A stretch of DNA of 32,000 nucleotides from Clostridium amylolyticum (GTDB lineage Bacteria; Bacillota; Clostridia; Clostridiales; Clostridiaceae), in contig NZ_FQZO01000004.1 of the NCBI RefSeq assembly GCF_900142075.1, positions 150,868-182,867 of the forward strand. The letters run 5' to 3'. Every line of letters begins with the position of its first letter. The first letter of the stretch is position 1. The notes under the pieces were generated by a model, which ran no database searches, was not told the origin of the DNA, and saw only the letters and a list, made by a program, of their open reading frames with translations. The translations under genes and the position numbers were made by a program. Positions 3,259 to 19,962 of this stretch are shown piece after piece.

Positions 3259-5100
3259 CTACTCGTCAATATCTTCAGGTATTATTACCTTAATATTTGT
3301 TCCTTTATTAATACAGCTGTTTATAATCAATCCATATTTTTCCCCATAGATTAATTTTAATCTTTGATCAGTATTTTTTAATCCTATCTTGTCTCGCTCT
3401 ATATTACGTTTAGTAACGTCATCGTGGGTTTCATTTATAACCTTGTTCACATCAAAACCTATGCCATTATCAATTATCTCAATACAAAGATCCCCTTTTA
3501 CCCTATATACATTAACCTCTAAAGTAAGGTTGTCCACACTATTCTCCACCCCATGTATGATAGCATTTTCTACTATAGGTTCAACCGTAAGCTTTGGAAT
3601 ATATAAATTAAGGATATCCTCCTCTTCAATGTGTATCTTATATTCTAACCTTTCTTCAAATCTTACCTTTTGCAGGTATAAATAAAATTCCACATATTCT
3701 AGTTCCTGCTTTAATGAAATTTTTGCCGTGGAATTTGTATATATTCCTGCTCTCAATAAAGTAGTAAGTGCATTTACCATCTTATAGATATCTTCGTCCT
3801 GGCACATTTTTGCTTTCATTTGAATGGTAAGCAATACATTAAAAAGGAAATGAGGATTCATTTGATATTGTAAGAACTTAATATTCATCTCCTTTATTAA
3901 GAGCTGCTTTTCATAGGTTTCTTTAATAAGATAATTTAACTCCTCCGTCATAGAGTTAACTGCTATGCTAATTTCATCTAAAGATGCATCATTGTATATA
4001 GGCATTTTTGTATCATACTTTTTATTTTTAATATTGTTAATGGAAACTAATAAATCTTTAATGAATTTTGTTGAGCTCATCATAAGCATAACCACTACAC
4101 TGGTTAATACTATTATCAAAAATATTGAAAATACAATGAAATAAGTCATACTTTGAAAAATTTGATTTACTATGTTCTTTCTAGGTATGGTCATAACTAG
4201 GGTTAATCCATTGCTTTCAATTTCTTTAAACCCTGCTATGTAGGCTTTACCATCTATTTTAATCTCATTGATTTTTTTCAAGTCTATCTTTTCAATTATT
4301 TCACTATTAATCTTTTTGCCTAACATATCTTTATTATTGCTAGATAAAATTACCCCCTCTTTATCATAAAGATATATGTTAGCATTGTTATATCTAACAA
4401 GCTCTTGAAATTTATCTGCTATAAGCTTTTCTTTTGTAGCCACAAGAAAGGTAATAGTTTCATTATTATCGTAAGGGTTAATTAACCTTCTCACATGATA
4501 TATGTTATCGTCATATATTGTAGGTGGCACATCAAACACATAACTTGTTGCCCAATCTTTAGTATTATTAAATACCCTATCAGAATTAACTTTAAATTTT
4601 TCTATAGGCATTTCCTTGGTAAATATGTAACTTATACCTTTGTCATTTACATAGGTAGAAACTGTAGATATAAGCTTTAGATTCCATGCGTTATTAAATA
4701 AAAGGCTTCTCCTAAGTTCATCGTCAAAGATAGTTATTTTACCATAAGTATCTTCATTATACTCATTAAGATAATTTGCATCAGCAATCCATTCTTTCAC
4801 CGTGTTGCTAGAAGTTAATCCCAAGGTGGTATACTTAATTATACTAAAGGAATCCTCTAGACTTTTCGAAGTATTACTAATCATCAGGGATATATTAGAA
4901 TAAGTACTTTCTAACATGGAATTATACATTCTGGCATACATAAAGCTTCCAAAGATTGATAATGATATAATGGTACTAGCAAATATATATATTAGTATTT
5001 TATTTCTTACTGACATATCCCTTAAATAGGGTATTTTATTAATGAACTTTCTAATCCTGTATTTAGATTTAGAGTATTTCTTCAAAGGTATCACATCCAA
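3259..5100 (-). CDS. Sensor histidine kinase, YesM-like (HAMP + His_kinase + HATPase_c)
   Basis: 613-aa ORF with two TM segments flanking a ~270-aa extracytoplasmic domain. It has the H-box motif QMNPHFLFN typical of the LytS/YesM family and a C-terminal ATPase domain (NAIIHG, IIDNGIGF). The start is uncertain: 5100 is a TTG without a clear SD, and no in-frame ATG occurs before codon 29. Confidence 0.85.
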   Translation of the reverse strand: MDVIPLKKYSKSKYRIRKFINKIPYLRDMSVRNKILIYIFASTIISLSIFGSFMYARMYNSMLESTYSNISLMISNTSKSLEDSFSIIKYTTLGLTSSNTVKEWIADANYLNEYNEDTYGKITIFDDELRRSLLFNNAWNLKLISTVSTYVNDKGISYIFTKEMPIEKFKVNSDRVFNNTKDWATSYVFDVPPTIYDDNIYHVRRLINPYDNNETITFLVATKEKLIADKFQELVRYNNANIYLYDKEGVILSSNNKDMLGKKINSEIIEKIDLKKINEIKIDGKAYIAGFKEIESNGLTLVMTIPRKNIVNQIFQSMTYFIVFSIFLIIVLTSVVVMLMMSSTKFIKDLLVSINNIKNKKYDTKMPIYNDASLDEISIAVNSMTEELNYLIKETYEKQLLIKEMNIKFLQYQMNPHFLFNVLLTIQMKAKMCQDEDIYKMVNALTTLLRAGIYTNSTAKISLKQELEYVEFYLYLQKVRFEERLEYKIHIEEEDILNLYIPKLTVEPIVENAIIHGVENSVDNLTLEVNVYRVKGDLCIEIIDNGIGFDVNKVINETHDDVTKRNIERDKIGLKNTDQRLKLIYGEKYGLIINSCINKGTNIKVIIPEDIDE

Positions 5101-14347: not shown

Positions 14348-16339
14348 CTAACTTAAAATTTGACTTTCATGCTTTTTAAAGAAATCCACACGGGGTTCTA
14401 AATATTTTAGTTTATGGGTAGATTTATCTTCCATAAATGTATAAATTGGTTCAAATATATAATCCCATCTCCAAAGCTTCTCATTTACATTTAGATATTC
14501 CCTTACCATTTCACAGCTATCTGGTGCAATAGGATGTATTAAAGTAATAGCAGTTCTTACCGCATGAAATGCATCTATTAAGACTTGCTTACGAAGAGTA
14601 TTATCTTCACTAGCCTCAGCAGCTTTCATGTTATTTGCCCAATATTTATTCATTTTACGAATGTAATCATCCAAAACATAAGTAACACTATGAAATTCGT
14701 GGTTATACATGTGTCTTTCATAGCTTAAAATAGCATCATTGGATTCTTCTATAATATTAGCGCTAATTTCGCCTTCTGGTATGTTACCATCAAAATATTT
14801 CTGTGCGGTATAAAAGCAAGAACGAAGAAGTCTGTTAAATACATTAGTAAGCAAATTACCATCCTTTAAAACCGTATCTGGTCCTTGTTTCTCTTCTTCT
14901 TTCATATAAACCTGAGGCATGAAGCTGACACTTTTCTTAGCCAGTCCAAGACTTAGGAAATGCATACGCAATTGCTCTGCTGTGTAATATTCTAATAACT
15001 CTTTTGCCATAGGAGGTTTAATATCACTGCTGCTGCTTGCCTTTTTATCCATAAACAGTACATGGTTATTGGCGATCAACTGTGGAAGAGATATATTTTC
15101 AAAGTTTACTTTATCCTCGCTATTAATACCTAATAAAGCCATGAACAATGCCATCTCTGCAATACCATAGAAGTATATATTATCTTCCCCAATAAATTGA
15201 TAAACCTTTGAATCCTTAGAATTCCAAAACTCTTTCCACTCACTAGAGTCCTTTCCAATGGATTCAAGATACGCTTTGGTAAAGGAAATAGGCGCCCAAA
15301 GAGATTCAGGCCAAACCCAAAAGGTTAGATTTTCAAGATTTTCCTTTTCAGGAACTTCTATTCCCCATTCCACATTTCCTGATAGCCTAAAAGGCACCAA
15401 TGTCTTACCAGTTCTAAAGCGTATGCCAAGCTCATCTAATACCTTTCTAGCCTCATCTCTATTCTTTAGACTTTCAAATACATAAGAAATAGAAGCTTTC
15501 TTTGGATCATCTATGATGGTATGCTTAGGTAATTTATCTTCTAAATCTGTGATACCTTCTAATTGCTTACGTTTTACATATATAATTGGAGACTTCAAGA
15601 ATTCTTCAATGGTATTTAATAAATATTTTCTCCAATTTGAATGGGTTTTTAAATACTCTACTTTTTCTTTCAAAATATCATTATACTCATCCAGTTTAAA
15701 ATACCAGTTTGTAACATCCCTCAATTCAGGTGTTTTACCCGACAAAATGCTCTTTGGCTCAATTAATTCCATTGGCATATACTGATGTCCTAAAGCACAC
15801 TCATCCGCATAAGCCTTATCTGAATTACACCCCTCTATAGGACATTTACCAATCACTTGTCTGCCGTTTAACAGTACTTTAAAATCAGGATCGTAAAACT
15901 GTGGTGATGACAGCTTAAGTAAATATCCACCTTCATATAGTTTATTAAATATTTCTTTTGATAATTCTTTATGGATTTCACCAGCTCTATCTAATGCAGA
16001 AGCCCCATATAAATTTAAACTCATTTCATATTTATCTAATACTTCTTTTTGCTTATGATGATTTCCACGAACATAATCTTCTATGGTACCTTCATACTTA
16101 TGTTCATCTACAAGCTTTCTATAGCTTGCTGAAATGGGTGAACCATAGCAGTCTGTTCCAGATACAAATATAACATTTTCCCCGCCGATTCTATCCCGTA
16201 AAAACCTTGCAAAGGTATCCGCATGTACAAAAACCCCGCCTACATGTCCAAAATGCAATTCTTTATTGCCATAGGGCATACCTGCAGTTATAACAGCTTT
16301 CTTAGGAAATATAGGTCTTTCTATTTTTCTCTCTTCCAT
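14348..16339 (-). CDS. Class I aminoacyl-tRNA synthetase of the MetRS family, divergent paralogue
   Basis: 663-aa ORF. The HIGH motif reads HFGH. The CP-domain knuckle and following segment, [41 protein letters not shown], aligns with E. coli MetRS [48 protein letters not shown] aligns with FIGKDIVYFH. The KMSKS position reads KASSS. An anticodon-binding helical domain is present, but no C-terminal EMAP/Trbp111 domain. SD AAGGAG lies 8 nt upstream. Confidence 0.8.
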   Translation of the reverse strand: [663 protein letters not shown]

Positions 16340-16457
16340 AACTTACACTCCTTAAAATATATAGTGTTCAAGGCACAGTTTCCTTGTCACATCTAATCTT
16401 ATACATATAATCACTCTAAAAATATGGTTATATGTTTATAATTATAATCTCTTGTTA

Positions 16458-16558
16458 ACCAAGTGTTTCCTAGCTTCAGATAAATTCCCCTTAAAAAGAA
16501 TAACTTCTCCAAACGAAGCTTAGATAAACTTATTCAGAAGCTTAGAACTTATTATGTT
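16458..16558 (-). repeat. Dispersed structured repeat, copy C (degenerate, inside the 5' leader of the aaRS paralogue)
   Basis: Aligns with 17078-17181 along its full length, including the extra (a)taagtt..ctaagct unit. The arms are aagtgtttcctagcttc and gaagcttagataaactt. Unlike copies A and B, no T-tract follows the hairpin in the minus sense. Confidence 0.55.
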
Positions 16559-16611
16559 GCCACTTGAAAAAGCGTCGAGATAGGTTCCATTGGTTACTAG
16601 GTAAAAAAGCG

Positions 16612-16885
16612 TATAAAAAAACACCTCCTACAATATTCTGTAGGGGCGAATTCTGTCGCGGTACCACCCTATTTCATCAGCATGTCACCATACTAACCTT
16701 GTCGAGTACAAAGTATACTCTAGTTCTGTAACGTGAACCAACGTCATAGTATCACTTATCCCTTAGAATAAGATCCGTATGCAGCTCCGAGCCTTGTTTC
16801 GTTAAATCTTCCACCGCTCCCTCTCACCCACAGGAACTCTCTGTAAATATCCAAAATAACTACTCTTCTCTTCATTGCCTTTATT
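16612..16885 (-). promoter_or_regulatory. T-box riboswitch leader (Stem I, Stem II, IIA/B, III, antiterminator/terminator)
   Basis: The minus-sense leader contains these elements:
- GA/K-turn GCAAUGA...GAGC
- AGAGUA and GAA S-turn halves
- AG bulge CAGAGAG
- Distal GGGUGAGAG
- F-box CGUUA
- T-box sequence AAAUAGGGUGGUACCGCG (16657-16674)
- Antiterminator AGGG/CCCU + GCG/CGC
- Competing terminator CCCCUACA-GAAUAU-UGUAGGAGG followed by UGUUUUUUUAU (16613-16648). Confidence 0.9.
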
Positions 16886-16891
16886 TTTTTA

Positions 16892-16920
16892 AGTTTATTA
16901 AATGAATAGGATTTTGTCAA
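16892..16920 (-). promoter_or_regulatory. Sigma-A type promoter for the T-box leader
   Basis: In the minus sense: TTGACA (16920-16915), a 17-nt spacer, then TAAACT (16897-16892), immediately upstream of Stem I. Confidence 0.6.
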
Positions 16921-17295: not shown

Positions 17296-19962
17296 CTACT
17301 TTTTCTGAGGTTTCACTGTGGCCTTAATTATCTCCTCCATTTGCTGCTTTGAAGCTTGAGGTATTGTATCTCCGAGATAATTCTTATTAATTTCCTGCAT
17401 CTTCTGATTTTCCTGCCTTATCCTCTCATTGGTTTCTTCAATCTCAACCTTCAATTCTCTGGCGGATAATAACAAGCATCCTTGCCCCCGAACGATTATT
17501 TGCTGCAAACCATCTGAGGTTGCTACAGATATATTATATTTTTTATTATTGTCATAGGCAAACCTTTCAATGTACTGGTCTGCTGTTTGTGCCTCTCTGG
17601 TATATACCAGGTGAATATTATGATAATCCATTGTACCTTCACCATGCCCCTGAACACGATAGGCATCAAACACAAGGATAATTTTACATTTTCGAACACC
17701 TTGATAATTACTCAAGATATCCATCAATTTCATTCTGGCACCTTCCATATTTTCATCTGCAAGCTCTTTCAATTCTGGCCATGCATGGATAATGTTATAA
17801 CCATCCACAAGAAGATACTCTTCTTTCATTGTTCTTTCTACGCTGGTATTCACTTGGTTAACAGGTTTATAATAGCTTTCACCTGCTGTTTTATGTGTTT
17901 TCCAGACAGATTTCTTTCCCTGATTTGTATAGAAGGTTTTATTGATAATCTCATCAATCTCTTCAGTACTAATAAAGCGTTCTTCCGTATATACTCCTTG
18001 ATTTTTGGATGTTTCTTCCCATAAATCTTCTTTTTCCTGAAAATAGCTTTCTAAATGCATATATTCCTTCACTTCGTCCCATTCAACAATAAAACCTGCA
18101 CCTTGTGCGCAAAATACTGAACTAGTGGGATTGTTAGTGTCTCTATCCGGATCATATCCTATGCTCTCTATGAGCTCATGATCATTATGGCAGGGTTCAT
18201 AGCCTTTTAGACTACAAAACAACCTACCCTTACCTTTGGTATAGGCAACTACCTCTTTCTGATAATTCCTCATGCCGCTTACAGGGGCCTTCCCCACAAG
18301 AACTGCCATTTCACCATCAGAATGAGATATTTCGCAAGTTCCATTGATTTTGTCTATATCGGTCATAGCTCTTCCTACCATTTTCTCAGGCAATTCCAGT
18401 TGGAAAGAATAGTATGGCTCCAATAAAACGGATTGTGCCTCCATTAAGCCCTGGCGCACCGCACGCCAGGTTGCCTCTCTGAAGTCGCCACCTTCGGTAT
18501 GCTTATGGTGTGCTTTACCAGAGACTAAAGTAATTCTCATATCCGTAATCTCTGAACCTGTTAAAACTCCTTTATGAGTCTTTTCCTCAAGATGATGTAA
18601 AACAAGCCTTTGCCAACTCTTACCAAGGATATCCTCACTGCATTTGCTTTCAAACACCAGACCACTTCCTGGTTCCCCTGGCTCCAATAGAAGGTGTACC
18701 TCTGCATAATGCCGCAACGGTTCGAAATGCCCTACTCCCTCAACAATATTAGCAATTGTTTCTTTATATACAATGCCTCCCGTATCTAAGGCCACCTTAA
18801 TGCCAAAACGGTTTTCTATTAGACTCTGTAAAATTTCAATTTGAACTTCTCCCATTATACGAACCTGAATTTCCTGTAGCTGTTCATCCCAAACAATATG
18901 AAGCTCTGGCTCCTCTTCTTCAATCTGACGCAGCTTTGGAAGCATGGCTCTTGGATCACAGCCTTCTGGAAGTATCATCTGGTAGGAAAGTACAGGCTCA
19001 AGAATGGAAGTATATGAAGCTTTCTCTATACCCAAGCCTTCTCCAGGTCTAGCCTTGCTGATTCCTGCCACTGCACACACGGAGCCTGCTCCTATCTCAT
19101 TCACTGCTTCAAACTTCTCTCCTGAATAGATGCGAATCTGATTTACCTTCCCTTCCCAGTGATCATTGGTTAAAATATCCTTTACCTTCAGCTTTCCACC
19201 TGTAACCTTCAGGTGTGTAAGGCGATTTCCCTGATCATCTCTTGTTATTTTAAATACTTTAGCTCCAAATACATCGGGATAGGAAGGTATGGTTACATAA
19301 TGGGCAATACAATGCATCAACTCATCAATACCTTCCAATTTTAAGGCTGACCCAAAAATGCACGGAAATACCCTTCTCTCCTTAACAGCTTTTTTTATTT
19401 CAAGGGTTTCAATATGTCCTGTTTCCAGAAAGGTTTCCAGCATGCTTTCATGGCACATAGCCAGTTGCTCATAAAAACTCTCTGTTTTCACCTGCCCAAA
19501 TTCAATACATCCATCACTGAACTGCTTTTTCAGTTCTTTCATTAAATTGTCCTTATCCGTTCCACTCTGATCCATCTTATTCACAAATATAAAAACAGGA
19601 ATGTTATAAAGGTCTAAGAGTCGCCATAAGGTCTTTGTATGACCTTGCACTCCATCTGCGCCACTGATAACCAAAATGGCATAATCCAGTACCTTCAGTG
19701 TCCTCTCCATTTCAGCTGAAAAATCCACATGCCCCGGGGTATCCAACAAAGTAATCTGAATTCCACCGGTTTCAAATACAGCCTGCTTTGAGAAAATCGT
19801 AATGCCTCTTGCCTTCTCCAGCTGGTAGGTATCTAAATATGCATCCTTATTATCAACCCTTCCCAGTTTTCCAATTTTACCACTCATATAAAGCAAACCC
19901 TCTGATAAGGTCGTCTTGCCCGCATCAACATGTGCCAATATCCCAATTACTACTTTCTTCAT
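17296..19962 (-). CDS. Fusion protein: Tet(M)/Tet(O)/EF-G-like translational GTPase (aa 1-~640) + YacP/Rae1-type NYN endoribonuclease domain (aa ~714-835)
   Basis: One uninterrupted 888-codon ORF.
- GTPase motifs: G1 AHVDAGKT (aa 10-17), G2 RGITI, G3 DTPGH (74-78), G4 NKMD (128-131).
- The rest of the N-terminal part is colinear with Tet(M) through SLKGYEP (~aa 585-590).
- The C-terminal segment EEYLLVDGYNIIHAWPELKEL...KIILVFDAY...TREAQTADQYIE...SVATSDGLQQIIVRGQGCLLLSARELKVEIEE aligns along its length with B. subtilis YacP (Rae1). Confidence 0.85.
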   Translation of the reverse strand: MKKVVIGILAHVDAGKTTLSEGLLYMSGKIGKLGRVDNKDAYLDTYQLEKARGITIFSKQAVFETGGIQITLLDTPGHVDFSAEMERTLKVLDYAILVISGADGVQGHTKTLWRLLDLYNIPVFIFVNKMDQSGTDKDNLMKELKKQFSDGCIEFGQVKTESFYEQLAMCHESMLETFLETGHIETLEIKKAVKERRVFPCIFGSALKLEGIDELMHCIAHYVTIPSYPDVFGAKVFKITRDDQGNRLTHLKVTGGKLKVKDILTNDHWEGKVNQIRIYSGEKFEAVNEIGAGSVCAVAGISKARPGEGLGIEKASYTSILEPVLSYQMILPEGCDPRAMLPKLRQIEEEEPELHIVWDEQLQEIQVRIMGEVQIEILQSLIENRFGIKVALDTGGIVYKETIANIVEGVGHFEPLRHYAEVHLLLEPGEPGSGLVFESKCSEDILGKSWQRLVLHHLEEKTHKGVLTGSEITDMRITLVSGKAHHKHTEGGDFREATWRAVRQGLMEAQSVLLEPYYSFQLELPEKMVGRAMTDIDKINGTCEISHSDGEMAVLVGKAPVSGMRNYQKEVVAYTKGKGRLFCSLKGYEPCHNDHELIESIGYDPDRDTNNPTSSVFCAQGAGFIVEWDEVKEYMHLESYFQEKEDLWEETSKNQGVYTEERFISTEEIDEIINKTFYTNQGKKSVWKTHKTAGESYYKPVNQVNTSVERTMKEEYLLVDGYNIIHAWPELKELADENMEGARMKLMDILSNYQGVRKCKIILVFDAYRVQGHGEGTMDYHNIHLVYTREAQTADQYIERFAYDNNKKYNISVATSDGLQQIIVRGQGCLLLSARELKVEIEETNERIRQENQKMQEINKNYLGDTIPQASKQQMEEIIKATVKPQKK

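Follow-up and report, generated by a model that had tools for sequence, protein, structure and literature searches.

A T-box leader with a predicted glutamine specifier precedes a re-modelled MetRS-type gene in Clostridium amylolyticum

We analysed a T-box leader and the gene that follows it in a stretch of 32,000 nucleotides from Clostridium amylolyticum (contig NZ_FQZO01000004.1, positions 150,868 to 182,867 of the forward strand), hereafter called the window. The gene encodes a divergent paralogue of the methionyl-tRNA synthetase (MetRS) family, and the comparison of 41 orthologous leaders indicates that the T-box in front of it is very probably specific for tRNA-Gln, with CAA (16796..16794) as its Specifier codon. 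Taken as a whole, our results are best explained by a tRNA-Gln T-box controlling a re-modelled MetRS-type enzyme that would itself be directed to tRNA-Gln, a reading to which we give a probability of about 0.78. The T-box architecture, the Gln specifier, the match with the tRNA discriminator base and the altered amino acid pocket were obtained directly by computation; from them we infer, at a little under even odds, that the enzyme charges tRNA-Gln. An earlier note on this DNA had described the T-box and assigned it tentatively to tRNA-Thr or tRNA-Lys. All coordinates below are those of the window, on the minus strand unless stated otherwise, so that high to low is the 5' to 3' direction of the leader. 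The system comprises the following elements.

16639..16884 (-): T-box leader, matched by the whole RF00230 model of Rfam (1-219); score 96 bits, gathering threshold 93, E 4e-20
16784..16878 (-): Stem I with K-turn, Specifier loop with S-turn, AG bulge and distal loop (96 bits with our own covariance model R1; covariation)
Within Stem I (-): K-turn GC-AAU-GA ... GA-GC, read from the sequence
16864..16861 and 16800..16798 (-): the S-turn halves AGUA and GAA, read from the sequence
16842..16838 (-): AG bulge, read from the sequence
16832..16822 (-): distal loop of Stem I, read from the sequence
16800..16792 (-): 3' strand of the Specifier loop, GAAACAAGG, read from the sequence
16796..16794 (-): predicted Specifier codon CAA (Gln), located after GAA (16800..16798) and the spacer A 16797, and before the purine G 16793
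16674..16657 (-): T-box sequence AAAUAGGGUGGUACCGCG, with the UGGU bulge at 16666..16663, complement of the tRNA 3' end NCCA
16671..16641 (-): antiterminator helix with a 7-nt bulge (Rfam structure line; -8.5 kcal/mol)
16615..16648 (-): intrinsic terminator, with hairpin core 16648..16622 and U7 tract 16621..16615 (terminator consensus scan; folding)
14348..16339 (-): regulated gene, 663-amino-acid divergent MetRS-family paralogue (Pfam tRNA-synt_1g, 4.5e-66)

The element is a full-length T-box leader (RF00230) and, as a riboswitch, unremarkable within this known family. RF00230 was the sole Rfam match between positions 16200 and 17350, where no other family appeared even at E ≤ 1, and its gathering score was also passed by 13 of the 15 orthologous leaders tested. 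The full-model match and the elements that we read bore out the description of a canonical T-box with all its standard parts given in the earlier note. The 69-nt segment 16680..16612 folds into the terminator with a minimum free energy of -17.5 kcal/mol. Since residues 16648..16641 are common to the antiterminator and the terminator, the two helices are mutually exclusive, as had been proposed from the sequence. The lower helix of Stem I, previously folded by hand as AGAG/CUCG, was correct for the three Watson-Crick pairs GAG/CUC; the fourth pair is an A.G.

Comparisons were made over 82 loci of the gene family, the window and 81 others. With the Stem I model R1, built from 23 leaders, we located a full-length Stem I immediately 5' of the gene at 41 of the 82 loci (the window and 40 of the 81 others). 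In 44 related leaders, 96% of the pair cells were standard pairs and compensatory changes were present in 16 of the 17 pairs, a level of covariation reached by none of 500 shuffles, and the slid-partner controls were only 34-44% paired. In the specifier columns of the 41 orthologous leaders we recovered CAA 36 times, CAG five times and no other triplet. The base between GAA and the specifier was A in 34 leaders, G in five and absent in two, and the base on the 3' side of the specifier was G in 40 and U in one; the outlier leaders L067 and L068 had the compact geometry GAA-CAG. Only the CAR frame varied synonymously among the 41 leaders, the ACA and AAG frames varying non-synonymously, and the specifier thus appears to be kept as a Gln codon by purifying selection.

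The earlier suggestion that the leader senses tRNA-Thr through ACA or tRNA-Lys through AAG has to be judged against this alignment. Both triplets do occur in GAAACAAGG, and if the first Watson-Crick pair (CUC/GAG) is taken as the strict boundary of the loop, the '+0' frame of TBDB falls on AAG. However, ACA is one base too early and becomes GCA (Ala) in five of the 41 leaders, and AAG is one base too late and becomes AGG in four of them and AGU in one. The alignment on a covariance model and the comparison of orthologous leaders, two checks proposed in the note itself, placed another triplet, CAA, in the Specifier position and found neither ACA nor AAG conserved, against CAA or CAG in 41/41. 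The observation that the strand 16800..16792 contains no AUG stood, and so did the more general idea that a MetRS-family gene is here controlled by a tRNA other than tRNA-Met. A loop with two codons or serving several tRNAs, as in the NT-box of C. acetobutylicum, was also considered and rejected, the overlapping ACA and AAG frames being unconserved.

The register of the specifier was controlled with the other T-boxes that R1 matched in the fetched DNA, whose downstream genes were scored against the NCBIfam cut-offs.

GAA-G-GUA-G in L027 and L030: codon GUA (Val), before valS (scored in L030 only, 1235 bits)
GAA-U-AUC-A: codon AUC (Ile), before ileS (984 bits)
GAA-G-GAA-G: codon GAA (Glu), before gltX (319 bits)
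GAA-G-ACU-A: codon ACU (Thr), before thrS (650 bits)

All the scored genes exceeded their cut-offs. Every control displayed the register GAA-N-codon-purine, with its codon in the columns that hold CAA in the present leader. In particular, the genuine clostridial thrS T-box has ACU one base after GAA, in the CAA columns and not where the proposed ACA would lie. A codon taken immediately after GAA would misassign the controls, giving Gly for valS and Tyr for ileS. The rule of TBDB, which counts from the 3' side of the specifier bulge in the Infernal structure and takes nucleotides 2-4 as the specifier (PMC7778990), gave CAA when applied to the Rfam alignment of this leader. From a methodological point of view, an error of one base can arise when specifiers are called directly from GAA or from the lower helix at its first Watson-Crick pair.

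Three RNA elements in the fetched DNA can be recorded in their own right. The Glu T-box (GAA) located 5' of gltX in C. hominis (L083 6767..6940, minus strand) is unusually short, with its T-box sequence soon after Stem I. A Thr T-box (ACU) is present 5' of thrS in a Clostridium metagenome-assembled genome (MAG; L086 6611..6813, minus strand). In the same locus, a TwoAYGGAY motif (RF01731, 73 bits; L086 4331..4484, plus strand) lies in the gap of about 210 nt between the convergent genes glnS (ending at 4131) and thrS (ending at 4543).

The tRNA partner of the T-box sequence pointed in the same direction as the specifier. Of the 41 leaders, 25 had UGGU as the UGGN bulge and 16 had UGGC. We took the tRNA genes of 22 Clostridia and read base 73: the discriminator was G73 in 21 of 22 tRNA-Gln(UUG), A73 in all 13 tRNA-Lys and A73 in the one tRNA-Met (1/1). 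The alternation of U and C in the bulge pairs with G73, as G-U or G-C, and not with A73; it therefore fits tRNA-Gln and argues against tRNA-Lys and tRNA-Met, since the UGGC bulge of 16 leaders cannot pair with A73. The same alternation argues against tRNA-Thr. Together with the drift of the ACA and AAG frames, the CAR codon of all 41 leaders and the register of the valS, ileS, gltX and thrS T-boxes, the clash between UGGC and A73 refutes the Thr or Lys assignment, to which we leave practically no weight.

T-boxes induce genes that restore the charging of their tRNA. In the mechanism that we propose, Stem I would offer the specifier CAA to the UUG anticodon of tRNA-Gln, and the UGGU bulge would pair with the G73-C-C-A end of this tRNA only if it is uncharged. 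Stabilised by such pairing, the antiterminator (16671..16641) would prevail over the terminator (16648..16615), and transcription would continue into the gene (16339..14348). Because T-box genes restore charging, and because the protein has kept the class I signatures and two nearly invariant anticodon helices, it would be expected to act on tRNA-Gln. It would most likely be an auxiliary glutaminyl-tRNA synthetase (GlnRS), switched on when charged tRNA-Gln is low. A more specific proposal, that this MetRS-derived clade is a second, non-homologous class I GlnRS that charges tRNA-Gln directly under induction by a Gln T-box, is tentative, and we consider it rather unlikely as it stands.

The product of the regulated gene does not seem to be a bona fide MetRS. 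It scored 250 bits with the NCBIfam MetRS equivalog NF001100 (cut-off 587) and 204 bits with TIGR00398 (cut-off 336), and release 20 of NCBIfam contained no specific model for the paralogue family. Only tRNA-synt_1g and tRNA-synt_1 were found with Pfam, without tRNA-synt_1c or the beta-barrel anticodon domains of GlnRS type, whereas both tRNA-synt_1c and GlnRS-type anticodon domains are present in the genuine GlnRS genes of L002 and L083. In the databases, some members of the family are named 'methionine--tRNA ligase' and others 'class I tRNA ligase family protein', NCBI now using the latter for many of them; the former annotation is probably wrong. The family is small, with 201 representatives at E ≤ 1e-30 among 1.8 billion cluster representatives. 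Its members come from at least 587 species-level genomes, most of which are Clostridia; many of these genomes derive from gut and rumen samples. The paralogue falls in a discrete clostridial clade that descends from the archaeal-type MetRS.

The catalytic signatures of this clade were fully conserved. All 82 members have kept HxGH (HFGH 29-32 here), the D63 that binds the alpha-amino group, the Zn knuckle C166, C171, C181 and H185, and the loop K433-A-S-S-S437 (KASSS). The archaeal MetRS of P. abyssi has KFSTS, and the missing second Lys of KASSS is therefore no sign of inactivity. In the anticodon-binding helices, N499, N502, R506, Y510 and R561 were found in 82/82 members, N564 in 78 and K565 in 80; N502 and R506 are the equivalents of N391 and R395 of E. 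coli MetRS. The P-W461 motif of MetRS stacks on the anticodon base C34. It is absent from the paralogues, in which the W461 position is variable and never a Trp, and the C-terminal tRNA-binding domain of Trbp111 type is missing as well. The residues of the amino acid pocket, numbered first as in E. coli MetRS, have been replaced as follows.

L13 to M21: fixed in the family
Y260 to F353: fixed in the family
H301 to Y391: fixed in the family
F304-W305-P306 to A394-E/Q395-M396: M, T or Q at 396 in members without a T-box

These changes suggest that the methionine pocket has been rebuilt, the His and Tyr that contact the sulphur, and the Trp, giving way to polar residues (Tyr and Glu or Gln). M21, F353, Y391 and A394 were the same in members with and without a T-box, and only positions 395-396 separated the two groups: E395 and M396 are nearly fixed in the T-box group, Q395 and T or Q at 396 being frequent in the other. 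Canonical archaeal-type representatives in the same alignment (P0215, P0220) keep the MetRS features, including the Y, H and W. We take L13, Y260 and H301 to be the positions that were mutated to re-specify E. coli MetRS (PDB 3H97, by its title). The earlier expectation of a changed amino acid or tRNA specificity was thus reasonable, the Met-specificity residues and the anticodon Trp having been replaced, although the Thr or Lys identity was wrong.

That the protein is nevertheless a genuine second MetRS, for instance an inhibitor-resistant copy whose leader has drifted or is cross-regulated by glutamine, finds some backing in the 'methionine--tRNA ligase' label used by several sources and in the closest solved structures, which are all MetRS. 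With scores far below the NCBIfam cut-off, many NCBI names already changed, the equivalents of L13, Y260, H301, W305 and W461 all replaced, these replacements fixed in 82 members, and a Gln specifier apparently under purifying selection in 41 leaders, we consider it very unlikely.

The paralogue also contains an insert of about 70 residues (residues ~250-320; window 15380..15590, minus strand) between the CP domain and the second Rossmann half. It had no match in Pfam and is predicted to form a small alpha/beta unit, with a local predicted local distance difference test (pLDDT) score of 80-90 in the AlphaFold2 model. A Foldseek search with the model recovered the MetRS fold, with P. abyssi MetRS on top, and also flagged PyrN-C. 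A sister clade (26-31% identity; P0155, P0174, P0186) has the insert and the F/Y substitutions and keeps KMSKS.

If the enzyme is directed to tRNA-Gln, it could alternatively charge this tRNA with glutamate instead of glutamine, in the manner of GluRS2, and feed GatCAB, which would provide a route to Gln-tRNA-Gln when free glutamine is scarce. The logic of a Gln T-box would be satisfied equally well, a MetRS-like fold with a glutamyl-adenylate analogue exists (PyrN-C, PDB 9L8V), and the indirect pathway is used by many Firmicutes (PMC2494555, PMC3927822). However, the position equivalent to W305 is Glu or Gln in 82/82 members, and the aligned pocket positions contain no invariant Arg, whereas PyrN holds the Glu side chain by Arg residues. 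A canonical GlnRS moreover coexists with the paralogue. Glutamate charging is thus an unlikely variant of the tRNA-Gln-directed enzyme.

The protein could alternatively be a tRNA-independent ligase that activates an amino acid, as hydrazine synthetases do, with the T-box only coupling its expression to glutamine status. The loss of the C-terminal tRNA-binding domain and of the anticodon Trp would agree with such a role. The window, however, contains no cupin or N-hydroxylase gene among the annotated neighbours, the protein itself lacks a cupin domain, and no neighbour is conserved over the 82 loci. Both anticodon-binding helices are nearly invariant in the 82 members, one divergent member of the family, which has no T-box, lies 3' of rpsF-ssb-rpsR, a translation context, and the induction by glutamine starvation of an enzyme that consumes glutamine would make poor regulatory sense. 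We give this ligase about the same low standing as the glutamate-charging enzyme.

Several observations weigh against an enzyme that serves tRNA-Gln under a Gln T-box. The specifier call and the function of the enzyme are both computational predictions. The AlphaFold2 model is of poor quality, with an overall pLDDT of 65 and 17 close sequences, and is not suited to an analysis of the pocket, whose assignment comes from the sequence alignment by itself. Stem I was absent from 41 of the 82 loci and from all the more divergent members (38-47% identity). At least two genomes have a canonical GlnRS alongside the paralogue, so that a second GlnRS is not obviously needed: the canonical gene is located 2 kb from the paralogue in the genome of L002, and glnS (735 bits) accompanies it in C. 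hominis NSJ-6 (L043, L083). In the hydrazine synthetases, domains of MetRS type activate Glu, Asp, Asn, Gly or Ser in the absence of tRNA (10.1101/2025.08.22.671884). Finally, the genes around P0155, a member of the sister clade without a T-box (31% identity; L282 1..4938, a metagenome contig), hint at an ancestry among tRNA-independent ligases. P0155 is encoded immediately 3' of a ferritin gene, near RimK/ATP-grasp, methyltransferase and ferrochelatase/MFS genes, and this ATP-grasp/ferritin/methyltransferase cluster also speaks for the ligase alternative; P0155 itself may act without tRNA, as the ligase of a biosynthetic cluster.

The tRNA-Gln-directed enzyme remains the reading that we prefer, and the distribution of T-boxes in these genomes bears on it. 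Using the motif and the Stem I model, we found no T-box Stem I upstream of canonical glnS in any of 80 loci, the hits there belonging to gltX and thrS; the Gln T-box in these bacteria therefore belongs to the MetRS-like gene. One Herbinix MAG carries two copies of the paralogue, on two contigs (L011 and L013), each with its own Gln T-box. An Rfam scan of 18 of the 41 loci without a T-box revealed no other RNA element.

Clustering of all open reading frames of the 82 loci revealed no conserved gene neighbour, with only sporadic occurrences of a type-2 IleRS (four loci), an ABC exporter and sensor kinases. In four loci without a T-box (e.g. L017 144..2945, plus strand), the paralogue is located directly 3' of a type-2 IleRS with DUF5915, on the same strand, and the two genes may form a two-synthetase operon. 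The neighbours of the paralogue in the window are unrelated to it (a MazG-like protein, a CPBP protease, SulP and, upstream, an EF-G/NYN fusion). The other features around the leader are the following.

16892..16920 (-): candidate sigma-70-type promoter directly upstream of the leader (TTGACA, 17 nt, TAAACT; 10 of 12 consensus matches; weak evidence)
16340..16614 (-): spacer of 275 nt separating the terminator from the start codon; it contains the ribosome-binding site AAGGAG (16353..16348)
17296..19962 (-): 888-amino-acid open reading frame, EF-G/Tet(M)-like translational GTPase with a C-terminal NYN ribonuclease domain of YacP/Rae1 type

In the consensus scan, the number of sigma-70-type sites in the region was not above that of shuffled sequences. 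The spacer of 275 nt is longer than in most orthologous leaders, where only about 100 nt separate the T-box motif from the ATG; it contained short direct repeats only, with no Rfam match and no credible open reading frame. The GTPase part of the 888-residue protein comprises domains G, II, III, IV and C and scored 433 bits with the NCBIfam model tet_protect, below the cut-off of 775, and the NYN domain (PF05991, E 1e-55) spans residues 717-879. This protein looks like a ribosome-binding GTPase joined to a member of a ribosome-dependent endonuclease family.

Gln is among the three rarest T-box classes, TBDB listing 226 Gln leaders (215 CAA and 11 CAG) among 23,535 (PMC7778990). Gln T-boxes are thus already catalogued there without being discussed, and what is new in our results is the combination of a Gln specifier and a MetRS-type enzyme with an altered pocket. 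In the literature that we searched, no paper linked a Gln T-box with a MetRS-like gene or discussed this family; Vitreschak 2008 and Gutierrez-Preciado 2009 lay outside this search and may mention it. A T-box states in its sequence which tRNA its gene serves, and 41 independent leaders name tRNA-Gln in front of a gene annotated as 'methionyl-tRNA synthetase'. If the enzyme does charge tRNA-Gln, this would be a new origin of a synthetase specificity and would add a third way of making Gln-tRNA-Gln to those by GlnRS and by GluRS together with GatCAB. Another role involving glutamine or tRNA-Gln would be new as well.

Compared with known systems, the leader has the same architecture and the same terminator/antiterminator logic as the other members of the T-box family (RF00230), such as those of B. 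subtilis tyrS and glyQS; unlike in these, its amino acid (Gln) does not match the family name of the synthetase that it regulates. The closest known structure to the enzyme is the MetRS of P. abyssi (PDB 1RQG; E 2e-57 with the family profile, Foldseek E 1e-20, about 24% identity), with which it has in common HxGH, the Zn knuckle, a KxSxS-type loop without the second Lys and the equivalents of N391 and R395. It differs from P. abyssi MetRS by the substitutions Y260→F, H301→Y and F304-W305-P306→A-E/Q-M, by the lack of the 'PW' anticodon motif and of the Trbp111 domain, and by the insert of about 70 residues after the CP domain. Hydrazine synthetases (PyrN-C, PDB 9L8V; Spb40/Tri28) provide a precedent for a MetRS-derived core with a re-specified pocket, for Glu in PyrN and for Asp, Asn, Gly, Ser or Tyr in its relatives. 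They are distant from the clostridial protein (E 3e-8, N-terminal half) and use a cupin partner and N-hydroxylysine but no tRNA, whereas the paralogue has no such partners and is controlled by a tRNA-sensing leader. Canonical GlnRS, and GluRS2 with GatCAB, serve the same tRNA as that implied by the T-box, but the paralogue has no homology to the GluRS/GlnRS catalytic family. The nearest parallel in regulation comes from B. cereus, where a T-box controls a class I LysRS (lysK) beside the housekeeping class II LysRS (PMC2916919). As in that case, the T-box belongs to a second synthetase-type gene, unrelated in structure to the coexisting housekeeping enzyme, here a GlnRS without a T-box. In contrast to lysK, the fold is MetRS-like and not GluRS-like, and the activity, demonstrated for LysRS1, is here a prediction. 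If it is correct, glutamine, like lysine, would be served by two types of synthetases of unrelated evolutionary origin.

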